A DNA stretch of 64,000 bases from a bacterium (GTDB lineage Bacteria > Patescibacteriota > Minisyncoccia > Phycocordibacterales > Phycocordibacteraceae), in contig JAJZRL010000002.1 in assembly GCA_021802705.1 (NCBI GenBank), positions 25,913-89,912 of the forward strand, in the 5' to 3' direction. The position numbers and the translations under genes are program-made. Positions 330 through 64,000 of this stretch are shown here, piece by piece; the stretch's first letter is position 1; every line of letters begins with the position of its first letter. The notes under the pieces were generated by a model. The model saw nothing but the letters and a program-made list of their open reading frames with translations, was not told the DNA's origin and did not search any database.

Positions 330-893
330 CTAGAGTCCCGAAGCGAGGATACCTCGATTGATACGGGCAACGTACCCGGCACGTTCCCGTGCGATATCGG
401 CAAGGAGCGGACGGGTGAAATCAGAGGTTTTGCCAGGTATGCCTCCCGTATCGAGACCGAGGGTAGCGAGCAACCGGAGCACCGCGAGCACCTCAGCGGC
501 ATCATGGTCTTCTTCCGGCAATACCGCGAGCGCTTCGAAAAATCCTGCGAGTACCGGGAAAAGCTCGGGATCCTGAGCTTCGCCTGCAAACCGCAAAAAG
601 AGGCCGGACACGCGACCGGCCCGTTCGCGCGCCACGGGAGTGCGCATCCGCACGAACCAATTCTCAAAAGGAATCGCGCCCGCGAGCCTCCACCCCCCCT
701 TCCCGCGTACGAGAACGAATCCGCTTTCGACGAAAGTCGAAAGCGCGCCCGCGAGTTTCGCGCCAGAGAGGCGCGCGCCCTGCGCGCTCGCACGCACGAG
801 ACCGAGATCTTGTGTCATGAGCGTCATCAAGACGTTCGCTTCTCCGAAGAACGAACGCGCGAGCACGATCCCCCGCGTTTCGTACCTATGCCA
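330..893 (-). CDS. recO: DNA repair protein RecO (short form)
   Basis: C-terminal 187 aa of ORF 330..1112: MWHRYETRGIVLARSFFGEANVLMTLMTQDLGLVRASAQGARLSGAK... matches RecO N-terminal OB-fold pattern. Start chosen at the internal Met that avoids overlap with ileS. Confidence 0.55.
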   Translation of the reverse strand, partial: WHRYETRGIVLARSFFGEANVLMTLMTQDLGLVRASAQGARLSGAKLAGALSTFVESGFVLVRGKGGWRLAGAIPFENWFVRMRTPVARERAGRVSGLFLRFAGEAQDPELFPVLAGFFEALAVLPEEDHDAAEVLAVLRLLATLGLDTGGIPGKTSDFTRPLLADIARERAGYVARINRGILASGL

Positions 894-3800
894 CATCGCG
901 GACAAGATCGAAGCGGACGCGTCCTGTCGACAGCTCGACTTCATACGCGCCTTCGGTACGGATCTCGACGCGCACCGTATCCCTCGGCAGATAAGATTCG
1001 CTCTTGCGGGCTTCCGCAACGGCCCGTGCCATTTCGCGCTCGTCGCCTTCCTTGACGAGCTCGGGCGTGAGGTCGGTGTCGAGCTCGATAGATGCATGGC
1101 CGGTCGAAACATGTTTGACGTTCACTTCTTCCGCGAGAATCTGCGCGAGCTCCTTCTCGAGAAGGTCCGGTACGAGAAGCTTTGCAAGCGGTTGCCGCAC
1201 CCTGATGCCCGCTTTCTGGCGCAGCTGGAGCACATCGGAAGCGAGCGCCCGAACGCGCTCCATGCCGGAGAGGAGCGCGGCATCAGGCCACGCACGGATA
1301 AAGCGTCTCGTTTTCCCCGCAAAGGAATCGGACGGCCAATGGGCGAGGTGCACGCTTATCGTATCGTCCTCGTAGCGAACGCGATTGAAAACCTCTTCGG
1401 CGAGAAACGGCATGACCGGCGCGATAATCACCGAGAATTCGCGAAGCACGTGTCGGAGCGTCGCGAGCGCCCGCTCCTTATCCTTCTCATCGGAACCCTT
1501 GATCCTCTCGCGCGAACGACGGACATACCACGTCGAGAGATCTTCTATGAAGTCCCGCATGGGGCGCGTCCCGCGCGGGATATCGTACCGATCAAACGCG
1601 CTCGTTACGTCACGCACGAGCATGGAGAGGCGGAGCAGTATCCAACGGTCGAGCGGGTGTTCGCTCTCGATGGAAGGCGCGGCCGGCGGCCCCTCCTTCG
1701 CGAAAAGCGTGTAGAAAGAGAGGACGTTCCGCAGCATGTTCACCACCCGCGCATGCGCCTCGCGCACGTCTTCGTCGCGAAACACGAGATCTTCGGCCTG
1801 CATGATGACCGAAGACATGAGGTAGTAGCGGAACGCATCCGCTCCGTAGCGATCGAAGAGATAGAGAGGATCCGTATAATTCCCCTTGCTTTTGGAGATC
1901 TTCGCGCCATCGACAGCAAGCACGTTTCCGGTCGTCACGACATGACGGAAAGCGAGCCGGTCAAAAAGCTCGACGCTCATGGCATGGAGATAGTAAAACC
2001 ACGCCCGTGTCTGGCCGATATACTCCGCGACGAAATCGCCCGGCGAACGCTTCTCGAACTCACCCCGATTTTCAAAGGGATAATGGTATTCGGCAAAAGG
2101 CATCGCGCCGGATTCGACCCAGCAGTCGACGACTTCCGGAATACGTTTCAGCGCTTTCCCGTGTTCGTCCCTAAGCTCGAGCCGGTCAATGTATGGAAGA
2201 TGATAGTCGAGCTCGTAGTCGGCATTATGCGGCAAAGGAACGAAATCGAGCGCGAGCGTTTCTCCGGTCTTGAAATCTGATGTATGCACGATGTCCGCGA
2301 ACCCTTGCGTGTCGGCTCCGCGCGCGACGGCAAGGAGCGATTCGAGGCCTATCCCGTGCGTCACGATAAGCACGCGTTTCCCGCTCTCTGCCGCCTCGAT
2401 CTCATAGAGGAAGTCGCCGAACCGCCGTTTCGCTTCCTTGTAGCTTTCGCCGCCCGGCATAGCGTCAGTGAACGGCGACTCCTGAGCATCGCGATACGCG
2501 ACGAAATCCGCGAGCGGCTTCCCGGAGAGCGCCCCGAAATCAAGCTCTCGCAGCCGCTCGTCGAAGCGCAGGGCGGAATGCGGGATGCCGAGTATGGAAG
2601 CGACGACTTCGGCAGTCTCTTTCGTCCTCATGAACGGCGAAACGTAGATGATATCGATGCCCGTGTGCGAGAGCGTATGGGCGGCCTGGCGCACCTCCGC
2701 TTTCCCGCGCTCGGTGAGGTTATTGCTCAAGGGATCAGAGCTTACGATATTCTTGAGATTCTTTTCGCTCTCCCCGTGCCGCATCACGAAATACGTGTTT
2801 CCGCTTCTCTTCGTATGCGCTTTGAGCTCTTCGAGGGAGCCGATAATCGTCACGTTCCCTTCCTGGTCCTTCCATATGGGAAGCGGGCTCGCCCAGAAAC
2901 GATTGCGAGAAATCGTCCAATCCGGCGCGCTCTCGATAATATGCCGGAAACGGCCTTCTTTCAGGTGCTTCGGTATCCAGTCGATCTTTTCGTTTTCAGC
3001 AAGCATGCGCTTTTTAACCGACTGGATATCGATAAACCAGCTTGCGACGGCGTTATAGATGAGCGGCGTGCCGCAACGATAACAGTGCGGGTACGAGTGC
3101 GTGTGCGGCGCCTTGGCGAAAAACAGTCCGCGATCCTCAAGATCCTCTATGATCTTCGCGTTCGCCTTCCTGAGATATTCCCCGCGCAAAAACTCTGGAA
3201 CGTCGTCAGTGTAGGTACCGTTCGGATTCAAGAGCTGCACCATCGGCAGACCGTGCTTTTTGCCGAGATTAAAGTCGTCCTCGCCATACATCGGCGCGAT
3301 GTGCACGATGCCGGTGCCGTCTTCCGTCGTAACGAAATCGCCGGAACAGACGCTCCAGGTCCTATCATTTCTTTGCGCGATAATCGCGTCTATCCGATAC
3401 GGGGGTTCGTACTGCACGAATCCTCCTTTCGCATCCGTATGCGCCAACTCGCTTCCTTCGAAGGTCCGCTGCGGATCTTTCAATCCATAATCCGCCGCTC
3501 TCGCCTCGGCGAGGATGAGCGTCTCGCCGTCGTGCGCGTATGCGCCATAGCGGACTTCCGGATTGACCGCGAGCGCGACGTTACCCGGCAGCGTCCACGG
3601 CGTCGTCGTCCATGCGAGGAAATAAACGTCTCCCGCAAGCCCGAGGTTTCCGGGATCCGCCATCCTGAACTTGACCGTTACCGCCTCCTCGTCGATGTTT
3701 TTATACGTATTATCCATCGCGATCTCGGCCTTCGCCAAGGGCGTCTCGCAATGCGGGCAGTACATGAGCACCTTCCGTCCTTCATAGAGCCGGCCTTTCT

Positions 3801-4305
3801 TGTGGATCTCCTTCAGAGCCCACCACACGCTCTCGATGAAAGAGTTGTCCATCGTCTTGTACGAATTGTCGAAATCGACCCAGCGCCCGATACGTTCGAT
3901 ATACCGTTTCCAATCACGCACGTATGCGAGAACCATCTCCCGCGCGGTCTCGTTGAACTTTTCAATGCCAAGCGCAAGGATGTCCTTCTTGTTTTTGAGC
4001 CCGAGCGTTTTCTCGACTATCGACTCGATAGGAAGCCCGTGCGTATCCCACCCCCACCGACGACGGACGCGATACCCGCGCATCGTCTTATACCGCGGAA
4101 TGACATCCTTCGATATGGAAGAGAGCAGCGAGCCGGTATGCGGCAATCCGGTGGCGAACGGCGGGCCGTCGTAAAAGACGAATTCGCCTTTCGGTGCCTT
4201 CTTTTGGAGCGATTTTTCGAAAATATCGTTCTTTTTCCAAAAAAGGAGCGTTTCCTCCTCCTTCATTGCGACCTCCGACTTCGGTTCAGGACCATCCTTG
4301 CTCAT
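886..4305 (-). CDS. ileS: isoleucyl-tRNA synthetase with an inserted histidine-phosphatase-like domain
   Basis: 1139 aa with class I aaRS motifs: PFATGLPHTGS (HIGH-like), WTISRNRFWASPLPIW, KISKSKGN (KMSKS). Strong IleRS-like N-terminus (LLFWKKNDIFEKS). Residues ~500-700 carry an RHG phosphatase signature. Confidence 0.9.
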   Translation of the reverse strand: MSKDGPEPKSEVAMKEEETLLFWKKNDIFEKSLQKKAPKGEFVFYDGPPFATGLPHTGSLLSSISKDVIPRYKTMRGYRVRRRWGWDTHGLPIESIVEKTLGLKNKKDILALGIEKFNETAREMVLAYVRDWKRYIERIGRWVDFDNSYKTMDNSFIESVWWALKEIHKKGRLYEGRKVLMYCPHCETPLAKAEIAMDNTYKNIDEEAVTVKFRMADPGNLGLAGDVYFLAWTTTPWTLPGNVALAVNPEVRYGAYAHDGETLILAEARAADYGLKDPQRTFEGSELAHTDAKGGFVQYEPPYRIDAIIAQRNDRTWSVCSGDFVTTEDGTGIVHIAPMYGEDDFNLGKKHGLPMVQLLNPNGTYTDDVPEFLRGEYLRKANAKIIEDLEDRGLFFAKAPHTHSYPHCYRCGTPLIYNAVASWFIDIQSVKKRMLAENEKIDWIPKHLKEGRFRHIIESAPDWTISRNRFWASPLPIWKDQEGNVTIIGSLEELKAHTKRSGNTYFVMRHGESEKNLKNIVSSDPLSNNLTERGKAEVRQAAHTLSHTGIDIIYVSPFMRTKETAEVVASILGIPHSALRFDERLRELDFGALSGKPLADFVAYRDAQESPFTDAMPGGESYKEAKRRFGDFLYEIEAAESGKRVLIVTHGIGLESLLAVARGADTQGFADIVHTSDFKTGETLALDFVPLPHNADYELDYHLPYIDRLELRDEHGKALKRIPEVVDCWVESGAMPFAEYHYPFENRGEFEKRSPGDFVAEYIGQTRAWFYYLHAMSVELFDRLAFRHVVTTGNVLAVDGAKISKSKGNYTDPLYLFDRYGADAFRYYLMSSVIMQAEDLVFRDEDVREAHARVVNMLRNVLSFYTLFAKEGPPAAPSIESEHPLDRWILLRLSMLVRDVTSAFDRYDIPRGTRPMRDFIEDLSTWYVRRSRERIKGSDEKDKERALATLRHVLREFSVIIAPVMPFLAEEVFNRVRYEDDTISVHLAHWPSDSFAGKTRRFIRAWPDAALLSGMERVRALASDVLQLRQKAGIRVRQPLAKLLVPDLLEKELAQILAEEVNVKHVSTGHASIELDTDLTPELVKEGDEREMARAVAEARKSESYLPRDTVRVEIRTEGAYEVELSTGRVRFDLVRDVA

Positions 4306-15406: not shown

Positions 15407-17521
15407 TTACCGCACCGTGATGATGTAGAGTTCGCCGTCCGTGAAGAACGGCTCATTAGCGAAATTCGCACCGAGGACAGGGCTCACGAATTGTACTTTT
15501 TCGACGCTGTCGATGACGCCTGCGGACATGAGAGATTTCTCCACGAACTCCCTTTCGGAATCTATGTCCGGATTGATGGCGTGCGTAATGAACCATTTAT
15601 AGCCTTGGTCGAGACTCGCGGTGCCCACGTATACGGCATAGCCGTCCTGCACGAGGTTCGTCTTCCATAGCCGGATATGGTGACGGTCCTTGATCGTGTG
15701 CGAAGCGGTCGCCTGTTCGAAGGCGAAATCATTCACGGACGAATTCCAAAACGTCGGGGTTATGGGAGCGTTCGGATATTCGCTGTTGGTTATGGCGGCC
15801 GCGGCTGCATGCAGCACGGACACGACGCCAATCTGGTCGGCGGGGAGCCACGAAGCTTCCTCGAAGGCGTGCGTGAGCGCGGTATCGTCTTTTGCCAAGA
15901 AAATGAAGTCGAGCGGTTCCTGCGGATTGCCGAGTACCGTCTCCGAATATTTCGGGATCGCGTGTTCGGTGAAATACGCGGCGATATCGCCGGACACGTT
16001 TTGCGTCGGCGCTTGCGTCGGGAGCGCAAGCTGCGGCTGATACGCCGATGCGAAAGCGACGTACCAAAGAATCGTCGCGAACAGGAGTGCGACCGTCACG
16101 GGCTTTGCCGCGGGCGATATCGGCTCCGGTTCTTCCGTCCCGGAATCCCCTTGTTTGCTCGAACGCCATTCATAGATGGAAATCCCCGTGCCAAGGATAA
16201 GCAGCCCGAGGAGGTATCCGGCCCACACGTCGCTTGCGTAGTGGACCCCGAGATACATGCGGCTGAATCCGATCGCCAGGATAACGGCGAGAGCGGTAAA
16301 GAATATATTCACTTTCCGCTTCCAGCCCTTATGCCGTATCGCGACGTACGCGAGAAACCCGTACAGAACGACGGAAACCGTCGCGTGTCCGCTCGGGAAA
16401 GAAAACGAGGGCTCGAGATAGACGGCGTTCTCGGGCCGCGCGCGATGCACGACGATCTTGCCGAAGAAGCTCAGCGACGCGGCTGCGGCGAGCATGAGCC
16501 AGAGATATGCGCTATAGATGCCTTTCCTCCGGAGGAAAAGAATCGCCGTTGCGACGGCCGCGATGGAAACGACCATCTGCCACGTGCCCAAGACCGTGAT
16601 CCAGAGGAACAGCTGAATGAGCTCGCTGCTGCGAAAGGCGATGAGGAGGCTATTGATCCGCATATCGACCGCGACGACCGGACCTGACGTTACGACAGCA
16701 AAAATAACGCCGAAAAGCGCGGCCGCCACATACAGGAAACCGATGCCGATAAGCGTGAGCGGAAGGCCTTCGAACGAAGACCGTTCAAAACGCCTCCCAA
16801 GAAAGGCGAAGGACCGGGGATATCGCCGCACGAGAGCCTGCACGTCCGGGTTCGAGACGAATGCGGTCCGCACGGATGAAAAAATGGAACGGGTAAAGAG
16901 CGCGATCTGATGCCCGTGCCGCACGACGAATACCTTGAGGGCATAGAGCACGATGAGGAACAGCACGAGAACGCCGATACTATAGCCGACACGCGTTACC
17001 CATGTCTCGATGACGGTAAAAGCGCTCCCGAAGAAGTAACCGAGCAGCAGGTGCGACACTGACCAGAAGATGGCGCTTAACACATTCCAAAATAAGAATC
17101 GTTTCAGATCCATCTTGGAAAGCCCCGCGATAAACGGAACGAGCGGCCGCAGGAACCCCAAGAACCTTCCGAGGAAAATGCTCTTCTCTCCGTGCTTCTC
17201 AAAAAAAAGCTCGCCGCGTTCTATGTGAGCGGCTTTCAGAAACTTGTTCTCATCACGGAAAAAATTGGTACCCTTGGTGCCGAGGTAGTAGCTCAAGCCG
17301 TCGCCAAGAATCGCTCCTATCGCGGCAAACCACATGAGATCCCCGATATCCCATACACCCTGCGCGGCCAAGAACCCGGCGAAAATGATGAGTGTCGACC
17401 CGGGTATCACCTCGCCGATAAGCACGACCGACTCGGCAAAAGCGATGAGCAGCACGATCCAGTACCCCCATACCCCAAGATGGGAGAGTATCGGTAATAA
17501 GAAGTGAGTGATGAAATCCAT
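15407..17521 (-). CDS. DedA/VTT - PAP2 phosphatase - LssY_C-like three-domain membrane protein
   Basis: 704 aa. N-terminal DedA-like (AESVVLIGEVIPGSTLIIFAGFLAAQG), PAP2 motifs (PSGH, SRMYLGVHYASDV), and a C-terminal soluble domain resembling LssY C-terminus (IRLWKTN...GYAVYVGTASLD). Confidence 0.8.
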   Translation of the reverse strand: MDFITHFLLPILSHLGVWGYWIVLLIAFAESVVLIGEVIPGSTLIIFAGFLAAQGVWDIGDLMWFAAIGAILGDGLSYYLGTKGTNFFRDENKFLKAAHIERGELFFEKHGEKSIFLGRFLGFLRPLVPFIAGLSKMDLKRFLFWNVLSAIFWSVSHLLLGYFFGSAFTVIETWVTRVGYSIGVLVLFLIVLYALKVFVVRHGHQIALFTRSIFSSVRTAFVSNPDVQALVRRYPRSFAFLGRRFERSSFEGLPLTLIGIGFLYVAAALFGVIFAVVTSGPVVAVDMRINSLLIAFRSSELIQLFLWITVLGTWQMVVSIAAVATAILFLRRKGIYSAYLWLMLAAAASLSFFGKIVVHRARPENAVYLEPSFSFPSGHATVSVVLYGFLAYVAIRHKGWKRKVNIFFTALAVILAIGFSRMYLGVHYASDVWAGYLLGLLILGTGISIYEWRSSKQGDSGTEEPEPISPAAKPVTVALLFATILWYVAFASAYQPQLALPTQAPTQNVSGDIAAYFTEHAIPKYSETVLGNPQEPLDFIFLAKDDTALTHAFEEASWLPADQIGVVSVLHAAAAAITNSEYPNAPITPTFWNSSVNDFAFEQATASHTIKDRHHIRLWKTNLVQDGYAVYVGTASLDQGYKWFITHAINPDIDSEREFVEKSLMSAGVIDSVEKVQFVSPVLGANFANEPFFTDGELYIITVR

Positions 17522-51582: not shown

Positions 51583-52794
51583 TCAAAGCTTATACGCCCA
51601 GAGCGACCCGTCGTTCTTATTGAAGAAAGCGAGAACGCTGTTTGCCGGATCTATCGAGAGCGCCTCGGCATCAAGAGGCGTATTCGTTTCCTTTGAAAAA
51701 TCGAGCACGAGCTGCGCATAGCGGCCGGAAACGTTTATCTTCCAGATACGGTCGGAGAAATGGACGGCCCCCTGATACCAGTCATCCGGATACGCATAGG
51801 TTTCAGGCGGGCTCATCGGCACGCCGCAGTAAATCATCGAGCTGTCCGTTGTCCATGTGCACTTATCAGCGATTGTCGCTATAGGAAGCTGGATCGTCTC
51901 GCCGGTCGTCGCGTTTACAAGCTCCGTCTGCATCCCTTTCGGGAGCGTATAGCTCACGAGCACCCATTCTCCCGACGGGCTTGCAAGCGCGACAAGGCCG
52001 TTTAAGGGCCCCGCAATCCTCGAAAAATGCCCCGCGCCGTCAACGATAAACGCGTCCCCTGGAAGCGTTGCCGACGGTTTCGTAAACGCCAGATAATGCC
52101 CTTTCCCGGCAAAGGAAACGCGAAGCGCTGCGAGCGGGGTCGTGAATACCACCGAGGATCCGGTGCCGTCGGTATGCATGAGAGAAGCCGATGATCCGTT
52201 TACGCCGGAAGCAAGCGCGAGCACACTTGTCGAAGAAACCGAGACATCCGCGAGGTCTTGGGGCAGAAAGAAACCGCTTGAACCGTCTGAGGGCAGCCCA
52301 TAGGTGTTTACCGTGGAAAAATCGGATCCGGAGAGGTAGCGGACGAAGGCGAGAGAGGCGTCGGGAAGCCACGATGCTTCTTCAATTCCCGGGATCGTCC
52401 GGTTGCTTATCCGTGTAAGCGTCCCTGCCTGTACGAGGTATGAAAAGACGTTCCCGCTTTGCCGTTCGATATAGGAGACCCCGACGTCGGGAGACGAGCT
52501 TGCATTTTGTGCGGAAATATCGACCACCGCTTCTCCGGGTACGACCGGACCGGCGCTTATTTCTACGAGCCGGGCTGAGATCGGTACCGGCGAAGGAGCC
52601 TGGACGGCCGTTGTGGTGCTCGCCTCTCCGGGGAGCGTTCCTTGTCCGGCAACCGGTAACCCCGCGGTATTGTCTGTGCCTGTCTTCGGGCCGACCGCAA
52701 GCCTTGCGGAAGGAGCGAAGAAGTAGAAGTATGTCGCCGTTCCGATTCCGGCGAGGAGGATTACGATCGCGGTGATGGTAAGTGTGCGGCGCAT
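51583..52794 (-). CDS. secreted/membrane-anchored hypothetical protein, distal gene of T4SS-like cluster
   Basis: 403 aa, N-terminal TM MRRTLTITAIVILLAGIGTATYFYFF, Ser/Thr/Gly-rich. Confidence 0.5.
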   Translation of the reverse strand: MRRTLTITAIVILLAGIGTATYFYFFAPSARLAVGPKTGTDNTAGLPVAGQGTLPGEASTTTAVQAPSPVPISARLVEISAGPVVPGEAVVDISAQNASSSPDVGVSYIERQSGNVFSYLVQAGTLTRISNRTIPGIEEASWLPDASLAFVRYLSGSDFSTVNTYGLPSDGSSGFFLPQDLADVSVSSTSVLALASGVNGSSASLMHTDGTGSSVVFTTPLAALRVSFAGKGHYLAFTKPSATLPGDAFIVDGAGHFSRIAGPLNGLVALASPSGEWVLVSYTLPKGMQTELVNATTGETIQLPIATIADKCTWTTDSSMIYCGVPMSPPETYAYPDDWYQGAVHFSDRIWKINVSGRYAQLVLDFSKETNTPLDAEALSIDPANSVLAFFNKNDGSLWAYKL

Positions 52795-52795
52795 A

Positions 52796-54046
52796 TTAGT
52801 TTAAAGGTTGCAACGTAAATTGGAGGTTTGGTTGACAAATATAATTATTACTCGAATTGGTGAAATTTGAGAAGGATGTGAATTTGCTAATGATAGAATT
52901 CGCCTGGTTCGCATCAGCAGAATCGAAGCAATAGTATGTTTGATCAAAACATTTTTTACTAGCGCTTCCTGATACTGGTGTTGAGTATGAGGGACAGCTA
53001 GTTTGTGAAAAAAGAGCGGTAGTTTGATTGGTACATACATAGCCGCCATCTGCATTACAGCCGTTTATAAACTGCGATAGAGACGCGCTCGTCTGAGCGT
53101 CAAAGGGCTCCAAGTTTGCGGTTGTCATTGACTGTGCTCCGATATCCATGAGCAAATAAGACTGAGGCGATGCCCCCTCGCAGCTAACAGTCGCTTGAAG
53201 ACAGCCGCTAGAATTAGAAGACGTGCAAGTTACCGAAGAACTATTAGCTCCAAAAAGGCCGAAAAAAGAAGTGCTGCAATTATTTGAAAGCCACTGCTTT
53301 GCAATATTGTCAGCGCTAAGCCCGCCCTTAGCCGCGCAACTCGCGGTTTTTAAATAACTAGTACCAGTAACAGTGCAACCGGTAGCGCTATCGACTGTCG
53401 TAGGGATAGAGTTGTTACCACCTCCCGCAAAAGATGCCGTTTTTAGATTAAGTGGCGGGATATTGAGTGAGAGGTTCAGGATACTCGGATTGATGATGCT
53501 AAAGACGAGGACCGGCGAGAGGACGAGAACGAGACCGAGAAGAGCCTGCGTGATGCGCTTCTTGCCGTCGCTTTGCTTGCTTACGCTGTCTTTCGTCGAT
53601 ATCTCGAGACCACCCCATATGATCATGATAACCGCAAGGATAGCCGCAACGCCGATGAGATATTTATAGAGGTTGTTGAGGAAATTGGAGAGCCCGCTCG
53701 AATTTGCCACGGTTCCTTGCGTAAGGCCGGGAATTCCGGCAAGAGGGACGAATCCGCTGGTGTTTGAGCCTTGCGACGAGACTGTCGTGTTTGAAGGATT
53801 ATTGCTTGCATTTGTTGTCGGATTTGTCGTTTGTCCGGTAGCGCTTGTTCCTGCCGAGGAGCTGGAACCCGATGCTTGGCACGTCATGCTCGCGCCATCA
53901 TATGAAACCTGACACGTGCCGTTCGCACCCGATGACGTGCTGCACGGGACCCCGACGTTTTGGTTCGTACAATCAGTGATCAGCGCCGCATGTGCCACGC
54001 CGACCGTGCCGAGCATTACAAGCGTGAGGAAAGCGAGTTTTTTCAT
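52796..54046 (-). CDS. secreted S/T/N-rich protein with VirB2/TrbC-pilin-like hydrophobic segment
   Basis: Signal peptide, then FVPLAGIPGLTQG...LSNFLNNLYKYLIGVAAILAVIMIIWGGLEI resembling VirB2/TrbC pilin cores. Long Cys-rich C-terminal domain with markedly low GC. Confidence 0.45.
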   Translation of the reverse strand: MKKLAFLTLVMLGTVGVAHAALITDCTNQNVGVPCSTSSGANGTCQVSYDGASMTCQASGSSSSAGTSATGQTTNPTTNASNNPSNTTVSSQGSNTSGFVPLAGIPGLTQGTVANSSGLSNFLNNLYKYLIGVAAILAVIMIIWGGLEISTKDSVSKQSDGKKRITQALLGLVLVLSPVLVFSIINPSILNLSLNIPPLNLKTASFAGGGNNSIPTTVDSATGCTVTGTSYLKTASCAAKGGLSADNIAKQWLSNNCSTSFFGLFGANSSSVTCTSSNSSGCLQATVSCEGASPQSYLLMDIGAQSMTTANLEPFDAQTSASLSQFINGCNADGGYVCTNQTTALFSQTSCPSYSTPVSGSASKKCFDQTYYCFDSADANQANSIISKFTSFSNFTNSSNNYICQPNLQFTLQPLN

Positions 54047-55047
54047 AAGCCGAATAGGTTACCGCTCCCCTGCGTTTCGAAAGAAAGCGGCAGAACCGTC
54101 GTCGCCTTTATGAAATCTCCCGAAGAACCGACGAGCGAAAGCGATGCGCTGCCCTTCCCCGATCCGGTTGGCCGGAGCGTTATCAGGTTGCCGGTTTGTG
54201 AAAGCGCGTTATTCAAAAACCATTGAAGCGCCGGCGCGCCGGTTCCGGTCGGGAAGGAGAAAGGAGCCGCATAGAGAGATGTTTCTGTTCCGGTGATAGT
54301 GTATCCTCCCGAAAGCGTATGGTCATAGAGAATGCCGAGGAGCGGATCGTTTATATAGATACGCACGGTCGGTTCCTGAGCCGTAAGCGAAACGGATGCT
54401 CCGCCCACAAAGACTCCATTCTGGCTCTCGACGACAACCGAGACATTCCTACTACGGTACTGGAGCGGCGAGGCGACAATGATGGCTTCTTTTCCGATAC
54501 CCGAAACGCTCGATATGCTCGCCCCGTCCACCGTCCACGCGTACGAAAGCGTGGCGGGATCGAGAGGCTTCCCCGCGGCGTTCCTAATGTCTGCCATCGC
54601 AACGACGCGTACGGTCCCCTCAAGCGGTACGAGCGGGTTCCCCGGATAGAGCGCCGGCGCCGAAGAGATCGGCTCGGCGATAAGCACGACATCCTGCGGC
54701 CGTACGGAGACGCTGCGGCTGTACGTTGTTCCTCCCGATGAGATGACCGCTTTGATTGTCGTAAGGCTCCCCGCTTCCCCGAGAGGAATGCTGACCGGCT
54801 GCACATTTCCTGAATAGGTTTCCTTGCCGTTGACGAAAACCGTCATCGTCGCGTTTGCCAGGTTGAGCGATGTCGAAAGCGCGGTAAGGGTTACCGAGCT
54901 CGAAGGAGAAGGGTTTTGCGGGCTTATCGAAAGAGAGAAAGGATCAACGCTGTTGACATTGAACGATTGTGCGCCGGCTAGAACGGGCAAGAAAAAAGCA
55001 AGCCCGAGGAAGGTGATGCGAAGTGGCCGGAATGAGAACCCTTTCAT
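54043..55047 (-). CDS. secreted hypothetical protein with Ig-like repeats
   Basis: 334 aa with signal peptide MKGFSFRPLRITFLGLAFFLPVLAGAQS. 4-nt overlap with the upstream gene. Confidence 0.5.
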   Translation of the reverse strand: MKGFSFRPLRITFLGLAFFLPVLAGAQSFNVNSVDPFSLSISPQNPSPSSSVTLTALSTSLNLANATMTVFVNGKETYSGNVQPVSIPLGEAGSLTTIKAVISSGGTTYSRSVSVRPQDVVLIAEPISSAPALYPGNPLVPLEGTVRVVAMADIRNAAGKPLDPATLSYAWTVDGASISSVSGIGKEAIIVASPLQYRSRNVSVVVESQNGVFVGGASVSLTAQEPTVRIYINDPLLGILYDHTLSGGYTITGTETSLYAAPFSFPTGTGAPALQWFLNNALSQTGNLITLRPTGSGKGSASLSLVGSSGDFIKATTVLPLSFETQGSGNLFGL

Positions 55048-55077
55048 TGCTCTTAGTATATCGCGTGCGCAAGAACT

Positions 55078-55707
55078 TTATGCGGCTTTGCGCACATCGT
55101 CGGGGATTTCATCCATACTCTCATCATTTGCCGCTTCGGCCGCTTTTATTTGTGTGATTTGCGCGGCTATCTGAGCCTGTTCTTGCCTTCCGGATTCGGC
55201 TTGCTCGCTCTCGTATCGTGCCAACGCCTCCCGATCCCGCTTTATTTGAGAGTGATACATCTTGAACGTAGTGCCGGTGAGTCCCGGCAATGAGCCGATA
55301 AAGGGCGTCTCGCTTATGAGAAGGCCAAACATAAACCAAAGCATATTGCCCGATGATTCCTTGAAGATACGCGCATTGGTGAGCATGATCATCAACCCAA
55401 CCGTAAGCCATCCGAAGAAACCAACCGCCACCGCCAAGATGATTCCGAGAACCTCAAGAGCAGGCCCGATGACGAATCCGGAGACACCTCCGCCCGCGGT
55501 GCCGAGAATACTGCTGATCCAAGTACCGAACAAACCGCTTGTTGCGGCAGTCGTACCGACGCCGATAAGGACCGGCCCGAAAAACCAAAACTGTTCGAAG
55601 AGGAACCGGACCGCATCAAAGACGAGCGCGGTTGTCATGACCGGCATCGCCCGCGTCCAGGTCATAACGCGCGGAGGCTCTTTACTGCTGTTTCTGCGTG
55701 AGATCAT
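55078..55707 (-). CDS. polytopic membrane protein (possible VirB6/TrbL-like channel component)
   Basis: 209 aa with at least 4 TM helices and a C-terminal coiled/charged tail. Its 5' end overlaps the VirB4 gene 3' end. Confidence 0.4.
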   Translation of the reverse strand: MISRRNSSKEPPRVMTWTRAMPVMTTALVFDAVRFLFEQFWFFGPVLIGVGTTAATSGLFGTWISSILGTAGGGVSGFVIGPALEVLGIILAVAVGFFGWLTVGLMIMLTNARIFKESSGNMLWFMFGLLISETPFIGSLPGLTGTTFKMYHSQIKRDREALARYESEQAESGRQEQAQIAAQITQIKAAEAANDESMDEIPDDVRKAA

Positions 55708-57505
55708 GTCGTTCTTTTTCCCCTTTTATCGCGAGAAGCTGCGAAGGGTCTGACGTGATGATCTGGTCTTCGGTATAGCTTGCGACGATCTTTATCGCGA
55801 CATGCTTCAGTCCCGCAAAGAAGAGCCCTTCCCCGACGCCTGCTTCAAGGAGCAGATATTTCTCTTCATCGGTCAGACTGAAGGTTTCTTGCAAGACCTT
55901 GATGCTTGTCGGAGATTGTTTCAGCAGGAGCTGCAACGAGGAGTTCGCAAGGATCGGCCGCCCATACGGGCTCCTGATGAAATCTTCGACATCCTGCGTT
56001 ATGGTGCAGACGCCGAGGTAGTACTTGCGGCCGCGTTTCGCGACGGAATACAAGAACGAAGCCGTATCTTCGCTTTTCATCATCCACCACGCCTCGTCGA
56101 TGACAAGCAGGCGCTTTTTCAACTCGTGACGTATCGCGTTCCATATGTAATGCGTCACGATATACATCGCCACCGGCTTGAGCTCGTCTTCCATATCGCG
56201 TATCGAGAAAACGGCGAATTGGTGCCGGAAATCGACATTCGTCGGCTGATTGAGGAATCCGGACCACGTGCCGCGGGTATATTTGGAAAGCCTCTCGACG
56301 AGAGACTCGCTCCCTTCCATGCCGGAGAGCACCTGTTCGAAATCGGAAAGCAGCGGGGGCTCGGCGCCGGTGAAATCGGCGTCGCCAGTGATGTCTTTCA
56401 GCGCATAGGTTTCGCTGACCGCGCGATCGATGATGGCATCTTCTTCCGGGGTGAGTCCGCCAAGCATGATGCGGAAGAGCCCGACAAGCGCGATGATATT
56501 GGAGCGCAAGATGTCCCGCGGATCCTCGTCTTCTTTGACCGGCGGCAGGTCGAACGGGTTGATGTGGTGTTCGGAAGAGAGCGAGATGCGGAACGAACGG
56601 CCTCCGGTCGCTTCCGCAAGCTGTCCGTACTCCTGTTCAGGATCGATGACGATAACGTCCGCGCCGAACATGAGCGAACGAAGTATCTCAAGCTTTGCGG
56701 AGTAGCTCTTGCCGCTGCCGGATTTCGCGAAAACGACCGAATTGTAGTTCTCAAGCGAGAAGCGATCGAAGAGGATGAGCGAAGAATTGTGCCGGTTGAT
56801 GCCATAGAGAATGCCGCGGTCGCTCGTAAGGTCGAATGAAACGAAGGGGAATATGGAAGAAAGAGGAGAAGAGTTCAATTTCGAATTGACGAGGAGCTCG
56901 TCGGTCCCGAGCGGCAGGCAGGACCGGAATCCTTGTTCCTGCTGGAAAAGGGCTGGTTTGGTATATACGAGCTTTGAATCAAGGATGCTGCGGATATCAC
57001 CCTCGGTCTTGCTTATCTCTTCTTTTGAATCGCCGTAGAGCGCAAGATAGAGTCCGACATCGAAAAGCTTCTCCTGTGCCTGCTGGAGATCGTTTCGCAG
57101 GTTCTCCAGGTCCTGATATGCAGTATCAAGGAGCGGGTCGCGTACCAGACCCTTTGCCTCACGGTCGTTTATCTGGCTCTGAACCTCGGCGACCTTTTTT
57201 TGGAAGCCGCGAAGCGCTTGTTCGGTTTCGATGGGATGGATGAATATGGAGATATCAAGCACCTTGTCGAGGTTGATGACCGGAGAAAACCAGCTGTCGA
57301 CGAGAAAGCGCGGGTATGAAATGGTATAGAATGCTCGAACGAATTTCTCACCGAGCTCGACTTCCCTCGAGCTTATCTTAAGCGCCGTCGGAGCGATCGT
57401 ATCGATGAGATCGAGAGATCCCTGCTGGTAGATGTCTTTCGGAAGGACCGGCATTATTTCCGGCGTTTCTTCTTTTTTGCGATTGAGAAAATCGAGGAGC
57501 GACAT
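55682..57505 (-). CDS. VirB4/TrbE-family type IV secretion ATPase, ATPase portion
   Basis: Walker A VVFAKSGSGKSYSAK, Walker B LLVIDEAWWMM (DEAW hallmark of VirB4), 607 aa. Confidence 0.8.
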   Translation of the reverse strand: MSLLDFLNRKKEETPEIMPVLPKDIYQQGSLDLIDTIAPTALKISSREVELGEKFVRAFYTISYPRFLVDSWFSPVINLDKVLDISIFIHPIETEQALRGFQKKVAEVQSQINDREAKGLVRDPLLDTAYQDLENLRNDLQQAQEKLFDVGLYLALYGDSKEEISKTEGDIRSILDSKLVYTKPALFQQEQGFRSCLPLGTDELLVNSKLNSSPLSSIFPFVSFDLTSDRGILYGINRHNSSLILFDRFSLENYNSVVFAKSGSGKSYSAKLEILRSLMFGADVIVIDPEQEYGQLAEATGGRSFRISLSSEHHINPFDLPPVKEDEDPRDILRSNIIALVGLFRIMLGGLTPEEDAIIDRAVSETYALKDITGDADFTGAEPPLLSDFEQVLSGMEGSESLVERLSKYTRGTWSGFLNQPTNVDFRHQFAVFSIRDMEDELKPVAMYIVTHYIWNAIRHELKKRLLVIDEAWWMMKSEDTASFLYSVAKRGRKYYLGVCTITQDVEDFIRSPYGRPILANSSLQLLLKQSPTSIKVLQETFSLTDEEKYLLLEAGVGEGLFFAGLKHVAIKIVASYTEDQIITSDPSQLLAIKGEKERHDLTQKQQ

Positions 57506-57519
57506 AGTTTTATAATAGG

Positions 57520-58152
57520 TTAGGCGTCAAGCCGGATCGGGTTCTCGAGCTCTCCGGGATTGAAAGAGCGGTAGAGGAGCTCGATGATCTCTTCGGTCCC
57601 GAGCGGGACCGCACGAATACCCGAACTCCCGAGCCCGCTTGCAACGAGCGCGAGGCGCTGCTCGAGCTGCGCGCGATTCTCTTCGAAAGACAGATCGGCG
57701 GCATTCGCAGCCACCGGATTCCCGCGATGGAGGAATCCGACCGCGTTTACGGGGGAAACCCGCGGCGAATACGGAACAACGACGTAAAACGATTTTGTCA
57801 TGATGTTCGCCTGATCCGTGAACGAACGTATGAACTCTATGTACTCGTGCAGTTGGATTCGCATAAGCTCGGTTTCTTGCCCGGCGGCCTTTTCAGAAAG
57901 CAGCGCGAGGTACGGCCGTAAGTCCATCTTGCGCGAATTCACGACGATCTGAATCGAGAAGTCGAGCACGTTAAGGAAGTTCTGGAACCCGAGGATGATG
58001 GCATGCTGTTCGTCAGCGGATTTCAGGCCGAAATTGACCGAGGAACAGATAAGGACGCCGCGGTAGCTGTCGTCTTTGAGGACGATGATGCCGTTCCGGA
58101 TCTCTTTGACCGGAACGAATTGCTGCGTTGCGCCCACTGTTTTTGCGGCCAT
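57520..58152 (-). CDS. VirB4 N-terminal (CagE_TrbE_VirB-like) domain encoded as a separate ORF
   Basis: 210 aa: EIRNGIIVLKDDSYRGVLICSSVNFGLKSADEQHAIILGFQNFLNVLDFSIQIVVNSRKMDLRPYL resembles VirB4/TrbE N-terminal domains. It ends 14 nt before the ATPase ORF, which is in another frame. Confidence 0.55.
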   Translation of the reverse strand: MAAKTVGATQQFVPVKEIRNGIIVLKDDSYRGVLICSSVNFGLKSADEQHAIILGFQNFLNVLDFSIQIVVNSRKMDLRPYLALLSEKAAGQETELMRIQLHEYIEFIRSFTDQANIMTKSFYVVVPYSPRVSPVNAVGFLHRGNPVAANAADLSFEENRAQLEQRLALVASGLGSSGIRAVPLGTEEIIELLYRSFNPGELENPIRLDA

Positions 58153-58153
58153 A

Positions 58154-58594
58154 TTATAGGTTCGTATTATCGGAGGTATCCTGTGTCGATTTTACATCAA
58201 GCGACCAGGCAAGTTCCGAGAGTTTCCCGCGCGTGAGCTTCGGGGTGCCGCGCGTCGGTTGCTCTTGAGGCATTGCCGCTGTCGCGCCGCCGGCGCCTTC
58301 TTTCTTTGCTTCCCCTTCTTCGTGTTTCCATAGGAAGAGCCTTGCGCGGGTGTAGTAATTGAAACCGGCTTCGAGTATTTCGACGAAAGGCTTCCCGTTC
58401 ATTTTGTAGAACGCGAGCGCTCCCGCGAGTGCCACGACGGGTATGGAGAACAGGAGCGCAAGCACGATTGGAAGGTAGACGAAGAATATCGCGCAAAAAC
58501 CGCCCGCACCGGCGACGTAGATGAACTGCTTCAGGGTTAGAGGCCCGACGATTCTATCCTCGACATCGATGAACTGCGGCACTTGATACTCCAT
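58154..58594 (-). CDS. VirB3-like small membrane protein
   Basis: 146 aa MEYQVPQFIDVEDRIVGPLTLKQFIYVAGAGGFCAIFFVYLPIVLALLFSIPVVALAGALAFY; two TM helices, immediately upstream of the VirB4 ORFs. Confidence 0.45.
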   Translation of the reverse strand: MEYQVPQFIDVEDRIVGPLTLKQFIYVAGAGGFCAIFFVYLPIVLALLFSIPVVALAGALAFYKMNGKPFVEILEAGFNYYTRARLFLWKHEEGEAKKEGAGGATAAMPQEQPTRGTPKLTRGKLSELAWSLDVKSTQDTSDNTNL

Positions 58595-61215: not shown

Positions 61216-61950
61216 CTAAGGCGCCGTAATCGTTTTTCCGTTTGAAACGAAAACCTTTGCCGGCGTGCTTGAGGAGATAGTTATTGCAGGAGCTTGCGAG
61301 CACGTACCGAAGTCCGCAAGCCGGGACGCAGCAGCAGAAGAAAGTCCGTTCTCTATGAGAAACGACGTATCGCCGTAAGAAAGACAGAAAGCGAGGGCAT
61401 AGTTCAGCATGGTTTTTGCATTCGGGCGTGCTTGTCTCTGGAGAGGCGGCCAGAGAATCTCAAGAGAGAGGCGCTTCCCTGCGGTAACGCGCATGCCACG
61501 CGAGACGGCGGCATCGCGGAGCCCGTGCTCTGCTTTTACCGCTTCGGCAAGCAGAGCCTCCTGGCTTCTTGAACCAGCCACCGGCGAACGGACGAGGTAT
61601 CCGATGCTGTACCGGCTAAGGACATCCGGTAATCCGCCGGTCGTATCCGCGGTAATACGCGTAAGCACGACTGCGTCTATACGACGCTGCCATTCAGGCA
61701 TCGCCCCTCCCAGTAAGCGGAGTATTTTCGCATCCGGTCCGGTATCGATAAGGATCGTTGCGCCGCGCTTTTCCCGGACGAGGATCGCACGGCTCTCTTT
61801 CCCCGTTTCGAGAACGGTTACGGTGAGCGGTGGCGTGGAGAATAGTTCGCGATAGACGAACATATTTGCTGCAATAAGGACGACGGCGATACCGATGATT
61901 GTCCGGCTGCGCAAAGCTTGCATGAGTACCGTAAGTATAGTATTACTCAA
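61216..61950 (-). CDS. membrane-anchored ComEC-type metallo-beta-lactamase-fold domain, catalytically degenerate
   Basis: N-terminal TM, then LTVTVLETGKESRAILVREKRGATILIDTGPDAK...IDAVVLTRITADTTGG. Same layout as the ComEC C-terminal MBL domain, but THxDxDHxGG is replaced by TRITADTTGG. Confidence 0.5.
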   Translation of the reverse strand: MSNTILTVLMQALRSRTIIGIAVVLIAANMFVYRELFSTPPLTVTVLETGKESRAILVREKRGATILIDTGPDAKILRLLGGAMPEWQRRIDAVVLTRITADTTGGLPDVLSRYSIGYLVRSPVAGSRSQEALLAEAVKAEHGLRDAAVSRGMRVTAGKRLSLEILWPPLQRQARPNAKTMLNYALAFCLSYGDTSFLIENGLSSAAASRLADFGTCSQAPAITISSSTPAKVFVSNGKTITAP

Positions 61951-61977
61951 TCGGATCGATTTTCGGGAGAAGTGTCA

Positions 61978-62151
61978 TGAATCCATCCCCTCACGAAGAG
62001 GTTCTTTTCGAAGAAGAGCTTGAACGCATGCGCCAGATATTCGGCTTCGAGAAGGTCGCGGAACTCATCCGCGACAACGGCGTCCGGCGTACGCTCGAGA
62101 TGCTCCGGCTTACGGAGTGCTTTATCGAAACGGGGTCAACCATGCAGTAAT
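61978..62151 (+). CDS. hypothetical small protein (57 aa)
   Basis: MNPSPHEEVLFEEELERMRQIFGFEKVAELIRDNGVRRTLEMLRLTECFIETGSTMQ; a strong terminator follows directly. Confidence 0.35.
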
Positions 62152-62156
62152 GGAGC

Positions 62157-62190
62157 GCCCGCGATCAGATGATCGCGGGCGTCTTTTTTA
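62157..62190 (+). terminator. rho-independent terminator
   Basis: Perfect stem gcccgcgatc-agat-gatcgcgggc followed by tcttttttac. Confidence 0.6.
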
Positions 62191-62208
62191 CTCTGTAGGC
62201 TACTGAGT

Positions 62209-62529
62209 TTACTGGCCGCGCATCTTATCCTCCCGATAGATCTGCTTCCCTTCTTCTATCGATCGTGCCATCCCGATCACCTCATCCTTGTCGTTTATGA
62301 CCGGCGCTTTCCCTGCGACGTCCCGCACGGTAAGACGCGCATCAAGGGCTTTCTGCACGACGTCTTCGACAGAATCATTTCCGTGTTCCTCGATAAGGGC
62401 TGCTACTTGGCGGATTTCATCAGCGGAGAACTGCTTTTCGGCATATTCCGGATGTTTCGCTATAAAAGTGGTTACCATCTGTTCTACGCCGGTTTCGGCA
62501 TGCGGGTATTTTTGCGATTCCATAGTCAT
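62209..62529 (-). CDS. hypothetical protein
   Basis: About 106 aa from MTMESQKYPHAETGVEQMVTTFIAKHPEYAEKQFSADEIRQVAALIEEHG...; the N-terminal part of the longer ORF looks non-coding. Confidence 0.35.
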   Translation of the reverse strand: MTMESQKYPHAETGVEQMVTTFIAKHPEYAEKQFSADEIRQVAALIEEHGNDSVEDVVQKALDARLTVRDVAGKAPVINDKDEVIGMARSIEEGKQIYREDKMRGQ

Positions 62530-62560
62530 ATGAAAGGAATAATAGGGTATGATACGGAAT

Positions 62561-63151
62561 ATGCAATATACCCTACGACAATTCAATCTTCCCGCGCTCA
62601 CCGGGCTTTCTGAGAAACAAATAAAGGTACATCTCGGACTGTACGAAGGATACGTGAAGCACGTGAACCTCATAAGCGACACGCTCGCCGCTGTCCGCAA
62701 CGGGGATCTGAAACTCGATCCGTACGTTGTCGCCGAGCTCCGCCGCAGGTTCCCTTTCGAGTTTAACGGCATGCGCATGCACGAATATTATTTCGAACAA
62801 TTCGAAGGCGAAAAAGGAGGAAGTCCCGATTCCGCGCTTGCCGCGGCCGCAAAAGAAAAGTACGGAAGCGGAGAGAATTTCATCGCGCACATTAAGGAAG
62901 TCGCCGGAAGCCGCGGCATCGGCTGGGTCGTCGTATCCGTTGATCCCGCCACCCGAACCTTACACACCGTTTTTGTGAACGATCATGAGATCGGACAGCT
63001 CGCGGGGCTCCCGATAGTGCTCGCGCTCGACCTCTGGGAACACGCATTCATGGTGGACTATGTTCCCGCGGAGAAGAAAAATTATATCGATGCCTTTTTC
63101 GCAAACCTCAATTGGAGCGTCGTTGAGAAACGTTTCGATGCGGCGAAATAA
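62561..63151 (+). CDS. Fe/Mn superoxide dismutase family protein
   Basis: The C-terminal motif ALDLWEHAFMVDYVPAEKKNYIDAFFANLNWSVV matches the SOD D-x-W-E-H-A-Y-Y region. The N-terminus YTLRQFNLPALTGLSEKQIKVHLGLYEGYV aligns to the SOD N-terminal helix with only one of the paired His retained. Confidence 0.7.
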   Translation: MQYTLRQFNLPALTGLSEKQIKVHLGLYEGYVKHVNLISDTLAAVRNGDLKLDPYVVAELRRRFPFEFNGMRMHEYYFEQFEGEKGGSPDSALAAAAKEKYGSGENFIAHIKEVAGSRGIGWVVVSVDPATRTLHTVFVNDHEIGQLAGLPIVLALDLWEHAFMVDYVPAEKKNYIDAFFANLNWSVVEKRFDAAK

Positions 63152-64000
63152 GTAAGCAGCACATACGCTGCAAGGACGAAAAGAAAAGAGAACGGCGGAA
63201 GCGGGACACTCGCGAACGGAAGCGCCGCGCTTACGCGCGCGATGCCGATAATGACGGCGGTAACGATATAAGCCGGAAATCCGATGAGAATGCCGAGAAG
63301 CGGCGCGAAAGAGCCGAGGACAATTTCTAAGAGGCCGGTAAGGGCCGACAACCCCATCGTTATGGGTATGAGCGGCATCACGAGCAGGTTCGCCGGGATG
63401 GCGACGAGCGAAAGATTGCCGGTCGCGTAGAGCAGGAGCGGCAGCACGGCGATCTGTGCCGCAAGGGTAGTCGCAAGAGCGTTTTTCCAAAAAGCGTTCC
63501 GCATGAAAGAAAGCAATGTTTCGATACGCGGCGCGAGCCATATGAGGCCGCCGGTCGCCGCGACCGAGAGGTCGAAGCCCGGATCAAAGGCGAGCGAGAG
63601 CGGATTCCACATGAGCATGAGAAAGACGACGATGAGCAGCGCGCGGCCGGCTTCGTAGGAACGGCCGCTTGCGCGTGCATAGAGCGCGATGAATGCCATG
63701 AGCATGGCGCGCACCGCCGTTGCCGACGCGCCGGCGACACCGACGAATACGAGAACGGTAGATGCTCCAAGCACCGTGCTCCATCGTCGCGGCACATGAG
63801 CGAACGCAAACGCGCTCATCACCCATTCGGCGACAACCATGACGTTGTAGCCCGAGAGCACCACGATCTGCGCGAGGCCGGAGCGGAAGAATACGTCCCG
63901 CAATTCTTCTCCGAGGCTTGCCTTCCCTCCTATCACGATACCGCCGGCAAGCGCGCTTTCCGGTTCAGGCAGTGCCAAGGCAAGGCCGTCGAGGAACGCG
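63082..64000 (-). CDS. comEC: ComEC/Rec2 competence-domain membrane protein (5' end beyond window)
   Basis: LPEPESALAGGIVIGGKASLGEELRDVFFRSGLAQIVVLSGYNVMVV matches the ComEC competence-domain core. Reading frame is open to position 64000; polytopic. Confidence 0.7.
   Translation of the reverse strand, partial: AFLDGLALALPEPESALAGGIVIGGKASLGEELRDVFFRSGLAQIVVLSGYNVMVVAEWVMSAFAFAHVPRRWSTVLGASTVLVFVGVAGASATAVRAMLMAFIALYARASGRSYEAGRALLIVVFLMLMWNPLSLAFDPGFDLSVAATGGLIWLAPRIETLLSFMRNAFWKNALATTLAAQIAVLPLLLYATGNLSLVAIPANLLVMPLIPITMGLSALTGLLEIVLGSFAPLLGILIGFPAYIVTAVIIGIARVSAALPFASVPLPPFSFLFVLAAYVLLTYFAASKRFSTTLQLRFAKKASI

Follow-up and report, generated by a model that had tools for sequence, protein, structure and literature searches.

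The comEC locus at the end of the window

The window analysed here, a stretch of 64,000 nucleotides from contig JAJZRL010000002.1 of a bacterium of the candidate phyla radiation (CPR), ends inside a locus for ComEC, the channel protein of DNA uptake. The locus holds the two-gene form of ComEC that is used by a CPR lineage of ultra-small, uncultured bacteria (Kaiserbacteria/Paceibacteria). One gene, comEC-N, encodes the channel, and a second gene downstream encodes a small membrane-anchored protein with a catalytically dead metallo-beta-lactamase (MBL) fold, referred to below as the comEC-C relic or simply the relic. An antisense superoxide dismutase (SOD) gene lies between them. Since the window cuts comEC-N, the full gene and its neighbours were read on the same contig (L001) in public assemblies, beyond the window end. 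The features of the locus, including open reading frames (ORFs) and the transmembrane (TM) helix of the relic, are:

63082..64000, minus strand: 3′ part of comEC-N (residues ~193-498; Pfam PF03772); the gene runs past the window end
63082..63151, both strands: 70-nt convergent overlap of comEC-N and the SOD gene, from direct reading of the sequence
62549..63151, plus strand, antisense to the ComEC genes: Fe/Mn superoxide dismutase gene, 200 aa (Sod_Fe_C)
62209..62523, minus strand: 104-aa gene of no known family, with homologues at the same position in four loci
62155..62182, plus strand: terminator-like hairpin and T-run (12-bp stem with 9 GC pairs)
61977..62150, plus strand: 57-aa ORF, a gene call on contigs, of uncertain status
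61216..61950, minus strand: comEC-C relic, a single-pass membrane protein with a dead MBL ectodomain
61843..61902, minus strand: N-terminal TM helix of the relic (TIIGIAVVLIAANMFVYREL)
61633..61662, minus strand: remnant of MBL motif II, TRITADTTGG

The two ComEC genes both lie on the minus strand, separated by 1131 nt (61950 to 63082). An earlier note, made from the letters of the window alone, had described a competence-domain ORF running from 63082 to the window end, a TM-anchored MBL-fold piece at 61216..61950, the motif string TRITADTTGG and a convergent overlap of about 70 nt between the SOD gene and comEC-N. Each of these readings was borne out: the competence frame is open (63082..63978), the TM helix is found, the string stands at 61633..61662 and the overlap is 70 nt exactly. 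The same note had placed the SOD gene and both small ORFs opposite to ComEC, which is correct for SOD and for the 57-aa ORF; the 104-aa ORF shares the minus strand with ComEC.

The Competence domain PF03772 is matched by ComEC-N with E 3.6e-43 (148 bits against a cutoff of 23). On the contig the full gene (L001 10534-12030) encodes 498 aa and comprises DUF4131 (PF13567, an oligonucleotide/oligosaccharide-binding (OB) fold lying outside the window) followed by the Competence domain; a look beyond the window end for this N-terminus had been proposed in the earlier note, and it is present. The protein covers residues 5-485 of the solved 801-aa ComEC 30bt (E 2e-20). More than 1400 homologues were found, of which the best 120 are all ~500 aa long, 57-66% identical, contain PF13567 and PF03772 only, and are named Minisyncoccota, Paceibacteria or Kaiserbacteria. 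With the Competence domain as its last domain and no MBL domain, ComEC-N is of the two-domain 'DC' type (DUF4131 + Competence) of ComEC. The product of comEC-N combines OB fold and membrane channel, and the gene is intact and strongly conserved. Upstream of it on the contig lie genes for RNase H, RecJ, HIT, PGK and TIM.

The relic descends from the ComEC nuclease domain

The relic is 244 aa long when read from a TTG codon and 235 aa from the ATG at 61923, the start used by gene callers. As a single protein it matches the MBL families of Pfam below threshold (Lactamase_B_2, E 3e-4, 20.9 bits vs 27; Lactamase_B, E 5.5e-3, 17.1 bits vs 22.7). When both proteins are placed on TIGR00361 (ComEC_Rec2), ComEC-N occupies profile positions 128-404 and the relic 404-565, so that the two pieces are contiguous in profile coordinates and follow each other in the N-to-C order that the earlier note had read from the strand. 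With the domains on separate polypeptides, ComEC-N scores 54 bits and the relic 16 bits, against a cutoff of 190 bits. The relic also aligns to residues 511-711 of 30bt, including the TM helix before the nuclease domain, in a single-sequence PDB match that is weak (E 0.057).

Because the Pfam and NCBIfam matches of the single protein were sub-threshold, a family profile was needed, and one of 23 sequences (A2) was used. Against solved structures this profile matched the ComEC C-terminal domain (CTD) 9ic4 with E 2.1e-8 and 30bt with E 3.6e-8 (aligned over 513-699, TM helix included), and the best non-ComEC MBL protein was LACTB2 with E 2.2e-3. One candidate member, P0024, which came out weakest in the first homologue search, is an active MBL protein of 274 aa in an unrelated neighbourhood with no ComEC nearby and was kept out of the profile. 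The AlphaFold2 model of the relic is of high confidence (predicted local distance difference test score, pLDDT, 90.2; predicted template modelling score, pTM, 0.84). It shows a helix at residues 2-36 and the MBL alpha-beta/beta-alpha sandwich with a truncated second half. A Foldseek search of the model against the PDB placed 9ic4 at the top (E 3.1e-13) and the next match at 1.6e-8, all top matches being MBL-fold proteins. The TM helix of the relic, which an alpha/beta domain follows, corresponds in the alignment to the one just ahead of the CTD in full-length ComEC.

The relic therefore descends from the C-terminal Mn-dependent nuclease (MBL) domain of ComEC together with the preceding TM helix. 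Were it instead an unrelated MBL-fold protein that lies near comEC-N by chance, the sub-threshold Pfam matches and the weak single-sequence PDB match would be natural, but the probability of this is next to negligible: ComEC ranks first by 5 orders of magnitude in the profile and fold searches, so that no non-ComEC family is the better match, and intermediates link the relic without a break to stand-alone proteins of ComEC type that are fully catalytic and lie in identical synteny.

Catalytic residues of the nuclease are lost

The relic was aligned with the catalytic stand-alone relatives P0242 and P0253 and with a fused 822-aa ComEC. The motifs compare as follows:

GQGD (active ComEC CTDs): GKES in the window protein
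Motif II, T-H-x-D-x-D-H (then x-G-G): T-R-I-T-A-D-T in the window protein
Motif IV, TGD (Asp): ENG in the window protein, with Gly at the Asp position
Motif V, GHHGS: deleted in the window protein; the conserved 'SSSTP' of the family remains
Segment of ~50 residues with NxYGHP: deleted in the window protein

After the deletion only the terminal strand (…SNG…) resumes the alignment. The relic matches positions 7-198 of a 284-position profile of the full-length stand-alone forms, and about a third of the fold is lost. Realignment with ComEC C-termini does not bring the histidines back. What is kept is one Asp of motif II (D102) and the structural Asp of LIDTG, and 5 of the 6 experimentally essential residues are lacking.

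These residues have been probed by mutagenesis in the ComEC proteins of Moorella glycerini and Legionella pneumophila, where substitution of H598, D602, H603, D700 or H725 by Ala nearly abolishes nuclease activity and D600A is ~5-fold slower (PMC12455585). All six corresponding substitutions abolish transformation in L. pneumophila, as does the double mutant F689A/F691A in loop 2 (L. pneumophila residues 682-694) (PMC12455585). The deleted NxYGHP segment is probably this essential 'pin loop' (loop 2), judging from its position and sequence rather than from an alignment.

With the metal ligands, motif V and the NxYGHP segment missing, the nuclease function of ComEC cannot be present, and the sequence strongly indicates that the relic cannot be a two-metal nuclease; the presumption of the earlier note that nuclease activity is lost is thus upheld, the HHGS motif and ~50 aa being gone as well. 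The retention of D102 and of the LIDTG Asp could be taken to mean that the relic is still a hydrolase or nuclease with a rebuilt active site. However, the relic family conserves no His, Asp or Cys column as a substitute; its invariant columns are Leu, Gly, Asp73, Arg78, Tyr114 and Ser/Thr, and with motif V deleted, 5 of 6 essential residues gone and Ala at most equivalent positions nearly abolishing activity (PMC12455585; PMC8579336), such a rebuilt enzyme is very improbable.

The two-gene arrangement is old and clade-wide

The first homologue search with the relic returned a small family of stand-alone proteins of 157-235 aa, none with the motif, the nearest being 48% identical. Their genes share a recurring context of ComEC-N, an antisense SOD gene over its 3′ end, the relic, L28 (reverse), an M50 peptidase and genes resembling a type IV secretion system. 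A survey was then made with local hidden Markov models (HMMs) on one genome per GTDB species, giving 80 loci; the counts below use the 76 with at least 1.5 kb of sequence downstream. A convergent SOD gene overlaps ComEC-N in 67 of these 76 (by 70 nt in 34, 85 nt in 17 and 79 nt in 8, nearly all in the same relative frame), and with the same arrangement in 67/76 related species genomes a chance arrangement is excluded.

The relic gene is present in 48/76 loci and absent from 28/76. Its product has at most 180 aa in 30 loci, 181-245 aa (the class of the window protein) in 15 and about 285 aa in 2. All ten scored conserved positions (DHDDHNDHHH) are kept only in L075 among the 76 species loci. 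In a neighbour-joining tree of ComEC-N the long forms of the relic are basal and the shrunken forms sit in the crown. The genomes without the gene (28 species, loci L043-L087) group together as one clade with a long ComEC-N stem and retain comEC-N; SOD directly abuts L28 in most of them, indicating a clean deletion of the relic.

A further catalytic form comes from a metagenomic relative: P0242 (L094/L095) is a TM-MBL protein of 291 aa with all catalytic motifs, and the gene order at its locus is RecJ, RNase H, ComEC-N, SOD (reverse), P0242, L28 and M50. L088 (P0199) is full-length with motif II lost. These long forms all take basal places in the tree. Two loci of more distant CPR bacteria, L097 and L098, carry ComEC-N and a stand-alone MBL gene on the same strand, the MBL being dead in L097 and intact in L098; in both, neither SOD nor an antisense-SOD remnant in the ComEC tail was found. 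An exhaustive profile search returned 105 clusters at E ≤ 1e-30 and 3327 at E ≤ 1e-10, and the best 150 clusters are almost all of 300 aa or less, many with perfect GQGD, THxDxDH, TGD, HHGS and YGHP motifs.

Since basal relatives have a catalytic stand-alone gene in the same synteny, the gene was already separate, and SOD already in place, while it still encoded a nuclease, and the decay came later. The two-gene split is more widespread than the SOD insertion and probably older. The possibility that insertion of SOD broke ComEC was set aside because L097 and L098 are split without SOD or a SOD remnant. Five loci within the clade (L028, L037, L046, L038 and L091) are SOD-less through secondary losses, being nested in the tree, and L091 and L038 keep some or all of the tail of ComEC-N that is described below. 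In L091 (5001..6980) the body of SOD is deleted and ComEC-N with its antisense-SOD tail is in frame with a dead relic in one 663-aa ORF, which is a secondary re-fusion. The locus is therefore an old, clade-wide two-gene ComEC with a decayed nuclease subunit and not a one-off disruption by SOD. Of the 'broken' ComEC of the earlier note, the two pieces with SOD between them stand; the breakage is not local, being lineage-wide and old, and SOD is probably not its cause.

The end of comEC-N is overprinted on the SOD gene

The product of the antisense gene is a bona fide Fe/Mn SOD. It matches Sod_Fe_C with E 2e-19 (69.9 bits against a cutoff of 20.9) as well as the SOD families of NCBIfam, and its closest solved relatives are archaeal-type Fe-SODs (1wb8, E 8e-25). 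Its ligand-bearing motifs (VH, MH and DLWEH) align with those of 1wb8 and supply the four ligands His, His, Asp and His. Pfam Sod_Fe_N gave no match at E ≤ 1, though the alignment to solved SODs spans residues 20-196.

Over these 70 nt, comEC-N takes its final 23 codons (…SKRFSTTLQLRFAKKASI) from the strand opposite to the codons for the conserved C-terminal end of SOD (…YIDAFFANLNWSVVEKRFDAAK). The third codon positions of the two frames coincide, and the stop codon TAA of comEC-N is the antisense of the junction between the conserved SOD Asn-Tyr codons. The tail is nearly invariant across ComEC-N homologues, presumably because the universally conserved C-terminus of SOD constrains it. It often persists after SOD has moved away or disappeared: L032 and L042 retain it with SOD 2.2 kb away, and L038 retains part of it. 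In the basal L094 the overlap is just 4 nt and the ComEC-N tail is unrelated. The tail of ComEC-N is thus a gene end that was created, and then kept, by overprinting on the antisense of a conserved neighbouring gene.

Small ORFs and hairpin in the gap

A local phmmer search of the fetched loci found homologues of the 104-aa gene at the same position, between SOD and relic, in L017, L021, L041 and L013 (E 1e-23 to 5e-7). Its product begins with …NMES…, carries the motif A[LF]DAR[VL]xVR, and is found in few lineages only, always between SOD and relic; it matched no Pfam or NCBIfam family, and a word-based homologue search with it returned only itself. The 57-aa ORF has no homologue outside identical contigs. 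The conserved 104-aa gene and the 57-aa ORF are additions to the gap in the lineage of the window. The hairpin at 62155..62182, which was graded strong, is closely flanked by the 3′ ends of the 57-aa ORF and, on the opposite strand, of the 104-aa gene. A promoter scan gave one site against 1.6 expected and was uninformative.

Selection on the relic and its possible role

The ratio of nonsynonymous to synonymous substitution rates (dN/dS) was determined from four independent close genome pairs of sister lineages with unsaturated dS (<1.4). The values for the relic are 0.16, 0.17, 0.15 and 0.25, and the same pairs gave 0.08-0.17 for ComEC-N and 0.06-0.09 for SOD; on these ratios the reading of the relic as a pseudogene was rejected. 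Near-invariant motifs of the relic family are DTGPDASILRALG, WQRxIDAVVLT, GGLPDVxxRY and ISSSTPxGxYxSDG. The mean net charge of the ectodomain is -18.9 for intact stand-alone CTDs (n=9) and +1.6 for dead ones (n=196), a difference (Mann-Whitney p=6e-7) that was calculated without phylogenetic correction; shared ancestry and the smaller size of dead forms both confound it. The ectodomain of the window protein (61216..61842) has a charge of +8 over 202 residues and an isoelectric point of about 9.9.

Overall these data are probably best explained if purifying selection maintains the relic as an accessory of the ComEC channel that is non-catalytic, faces outward and has become positively charged. 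In this role it would act as a structural partner or scaffold, or as a DNA guide for the channel, as was proposed earlier for the degenerate CTD of Streptococcus pneumoniae ComEC (PMC8579336). The relic may dock on ComEC-N, for which the re-fusion in L091 and the retained homologous TM helix are indirect support, and the non-transported strand might then be handled by another nuclease or simply be displaced. The role would be useful but dispensable, because one sister clade deleted the gene cleanly and kept comEC-N.

Several observations weigh against this explanation. The dN/dS values cover sister lineages and not the window gene, whose nearest relative is the 48% identical protein mentioned above, and the charge comparison is subject to the confounding already noted. 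The repeated independent shrinkage from ~285 to ~235 to ~165 aa, together with complete loss in the 28-species clade, resembles ongoing decay. With a convergent SOD gene and a strong hairpin between them, moreover, comEC-N and the relic can no longer be co-transcribed.

If the nuclease gene became dispensable after the split, the relic could be functionless, in slow neutral decay and heading for deletion. Three size classes with several independent internal deletions would fit this, as would the clean deletion in the clade of 28 species genomes that kept comEC-N and a rate of protein evolution about twice that of ComEC-N. The copy in L017 (7629..8145) is frameshifted, with HMM matches of 86 and 108 aa in two frames, from pseudogenisation or an assembly error. 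Neutral decay is nevertheless unlikely in view of the dN/dS of 0.15-0.25 in four independent close pairs, of an ORF that is intact, with near-invariant motifs, in 48 species genomes spanning about 40% identity, and of the confidently predicted fold.

Less likely still is re-use of the relic for a surface function unrelated to ComEC, such as host or substrate binding by an episymbiont, with the adjacency to comEC-N a matter of historical synteny. The transcriptional uncoupling by the antisense SOD and the hairpin, the charge reversal of the ectodomain and the distance of 1.9-3.1 kb between relic and comEC-N in L032, L042, L045 and L086 would all be compatible with it. Synteny with comEC-N is kept, however, in essentially every relic-bearing genome, the relic still has the TM helix that is homologous to that of ComEC, and the in-frame re-fusion to comEC-N in L091 (663 aa) is hard to reconcile with such a function.

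Within the accessory role that we favour, a more specific version can be put forward tentatively, as a possibility to which we would give rather less than even chances: the former nuclease may have turned into a small basic membrane subunit that docks on the channel and guides or separates the strands without cutting them, so that import would be uncoupled from ComEC-borne degradation.

Other genes in the window

Further uptake genes in the window encode PilM and a PilB-type ATPase. A PilN-like protein was matched there weakly, below threshold, and a T2SSF gene of PilC type is found shortly outside the window. These pilus genes fit a working pilus-dependent uptake system, and ComEC-dependent transformation has been demonstrated in another CPR phylum (PMC10633639).

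A conjugation-like type IV secretion cluster occupies 51583..58594 (minus strand), a few genes further downstream from the ComEC locus. It has genes for PrgI, a TraC-like protein, a T4SS pilin and a P-loop ATPase of VirB4/TraG type, besides several without annotation; its linkage to the ComEC locus is syntenic across relatives. Elsewhere in the window, 886..4305 (minus strand) encodes a 1139-aa class I aminoacyl-tRNA synthetase (tRNA-synt_1 E 2e-120, Anticodon_1) whose catalytic domain is split in two by an inserted histidine-phosphatase domain (His_Phos_1, E 1e-32; residues 506-672), and 15407..17521 (minus strand) encodes a 704-aa fusion of VTT (DedA-like), PAP2 phosphatase and LssY_C.

Comparison with known systems

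The two proteins of the window contain the same modules in the same order as three-domain ComEC/Rec2 (Bacillus subtilis, Moorella thermoacetica/glycerini, L. pneumophila; TIGR00361; 30bt, 9ic4), namely the OB fold, the Competence channel and a TM helix with the MBL domain. Unlike three-domain ComEC, the window has these modules on two polypeptides, encoded by genes 1.1 kb apart with an antisense SOD gene between them, and unlike the three-domain proteins, for which nuclease activity has been shown (PMC8579336, PMC12455585), its MBL domain is without the metal ligands, motif V and NxYGHP. A parallel for the loss of catalysis is S. pneumoniae, which has a separate membrane nuclease, EndA, for degrading the non-transported strand, and whose ComEC likewise retains an MBL domain without metal ligands. 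The S. pneumoniae CTD, however, is fused, full-length and mildly substituted, whereas that of the window is encoded by a separate gene, is far more degenerate and is truncated. A scan of about 40 ORFs in the window, which is a small part of the genome, gave no EndA-type nuclease and no other exported nuclease that could be recognised, and no second, active ComEC-type MBL domain was found in the window.

CPSF100 and INTS9 are catalytically dead MBL-fold paralogues of the eukaryotic beta-CASP group that are paired with an active paralogue and kept as structural partners. The relic is like them in having lost the metal ligands while the fold is retained under selection, and INTS9 chains are among its fold matches. 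It differs from them in that no active paralogue is seen in the window and that its presumed partner is a membrane channel.

Almost half of ComEC proteins are said to lack a nuclease domain, and the fate of the non-transported strand in their organisms is an acknowledged open question (PMC8579336). The 'DC' profile was found in 14 of 51 known competent strains by Pimentel & Zhang (PMC6299819), and ComEC without an MBL fusion was reported in CPR by Meheust et al. 2019 (PMC6744442). ComEC-N of the window is 'DC' like the MBL-less 'DC'/'C' ComECs of, for example, Helicobacter pylori. These reports treat the MBL domain as absent, whereas in the window and in related CPR genomes it has a gene of its own downstream, whose product is dead in most lineages but active in some. 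Our literature searches found no description of a split ComEC or of a stand-alone ComEC MBL gene in CPR.

The view that CPR ComEC lacks the nuclease domain thus needs revision for this part of the CPR, where the domain is not absent but separately encoded and membrane-anchored, and the scoring of a ComEC as 'MBL-less' should include a look downstream for a stand-alone TM-MBL gene. The overlap with SOD is in addition a clear example of a gene tail made by reading the antisense of a conserved neighbour. Finally, a lineage that holds every stage, from fully catalytic through dead and shrunken to deleted, offers a natural series in which a possible non-catalytic role of the CTD can be tested.

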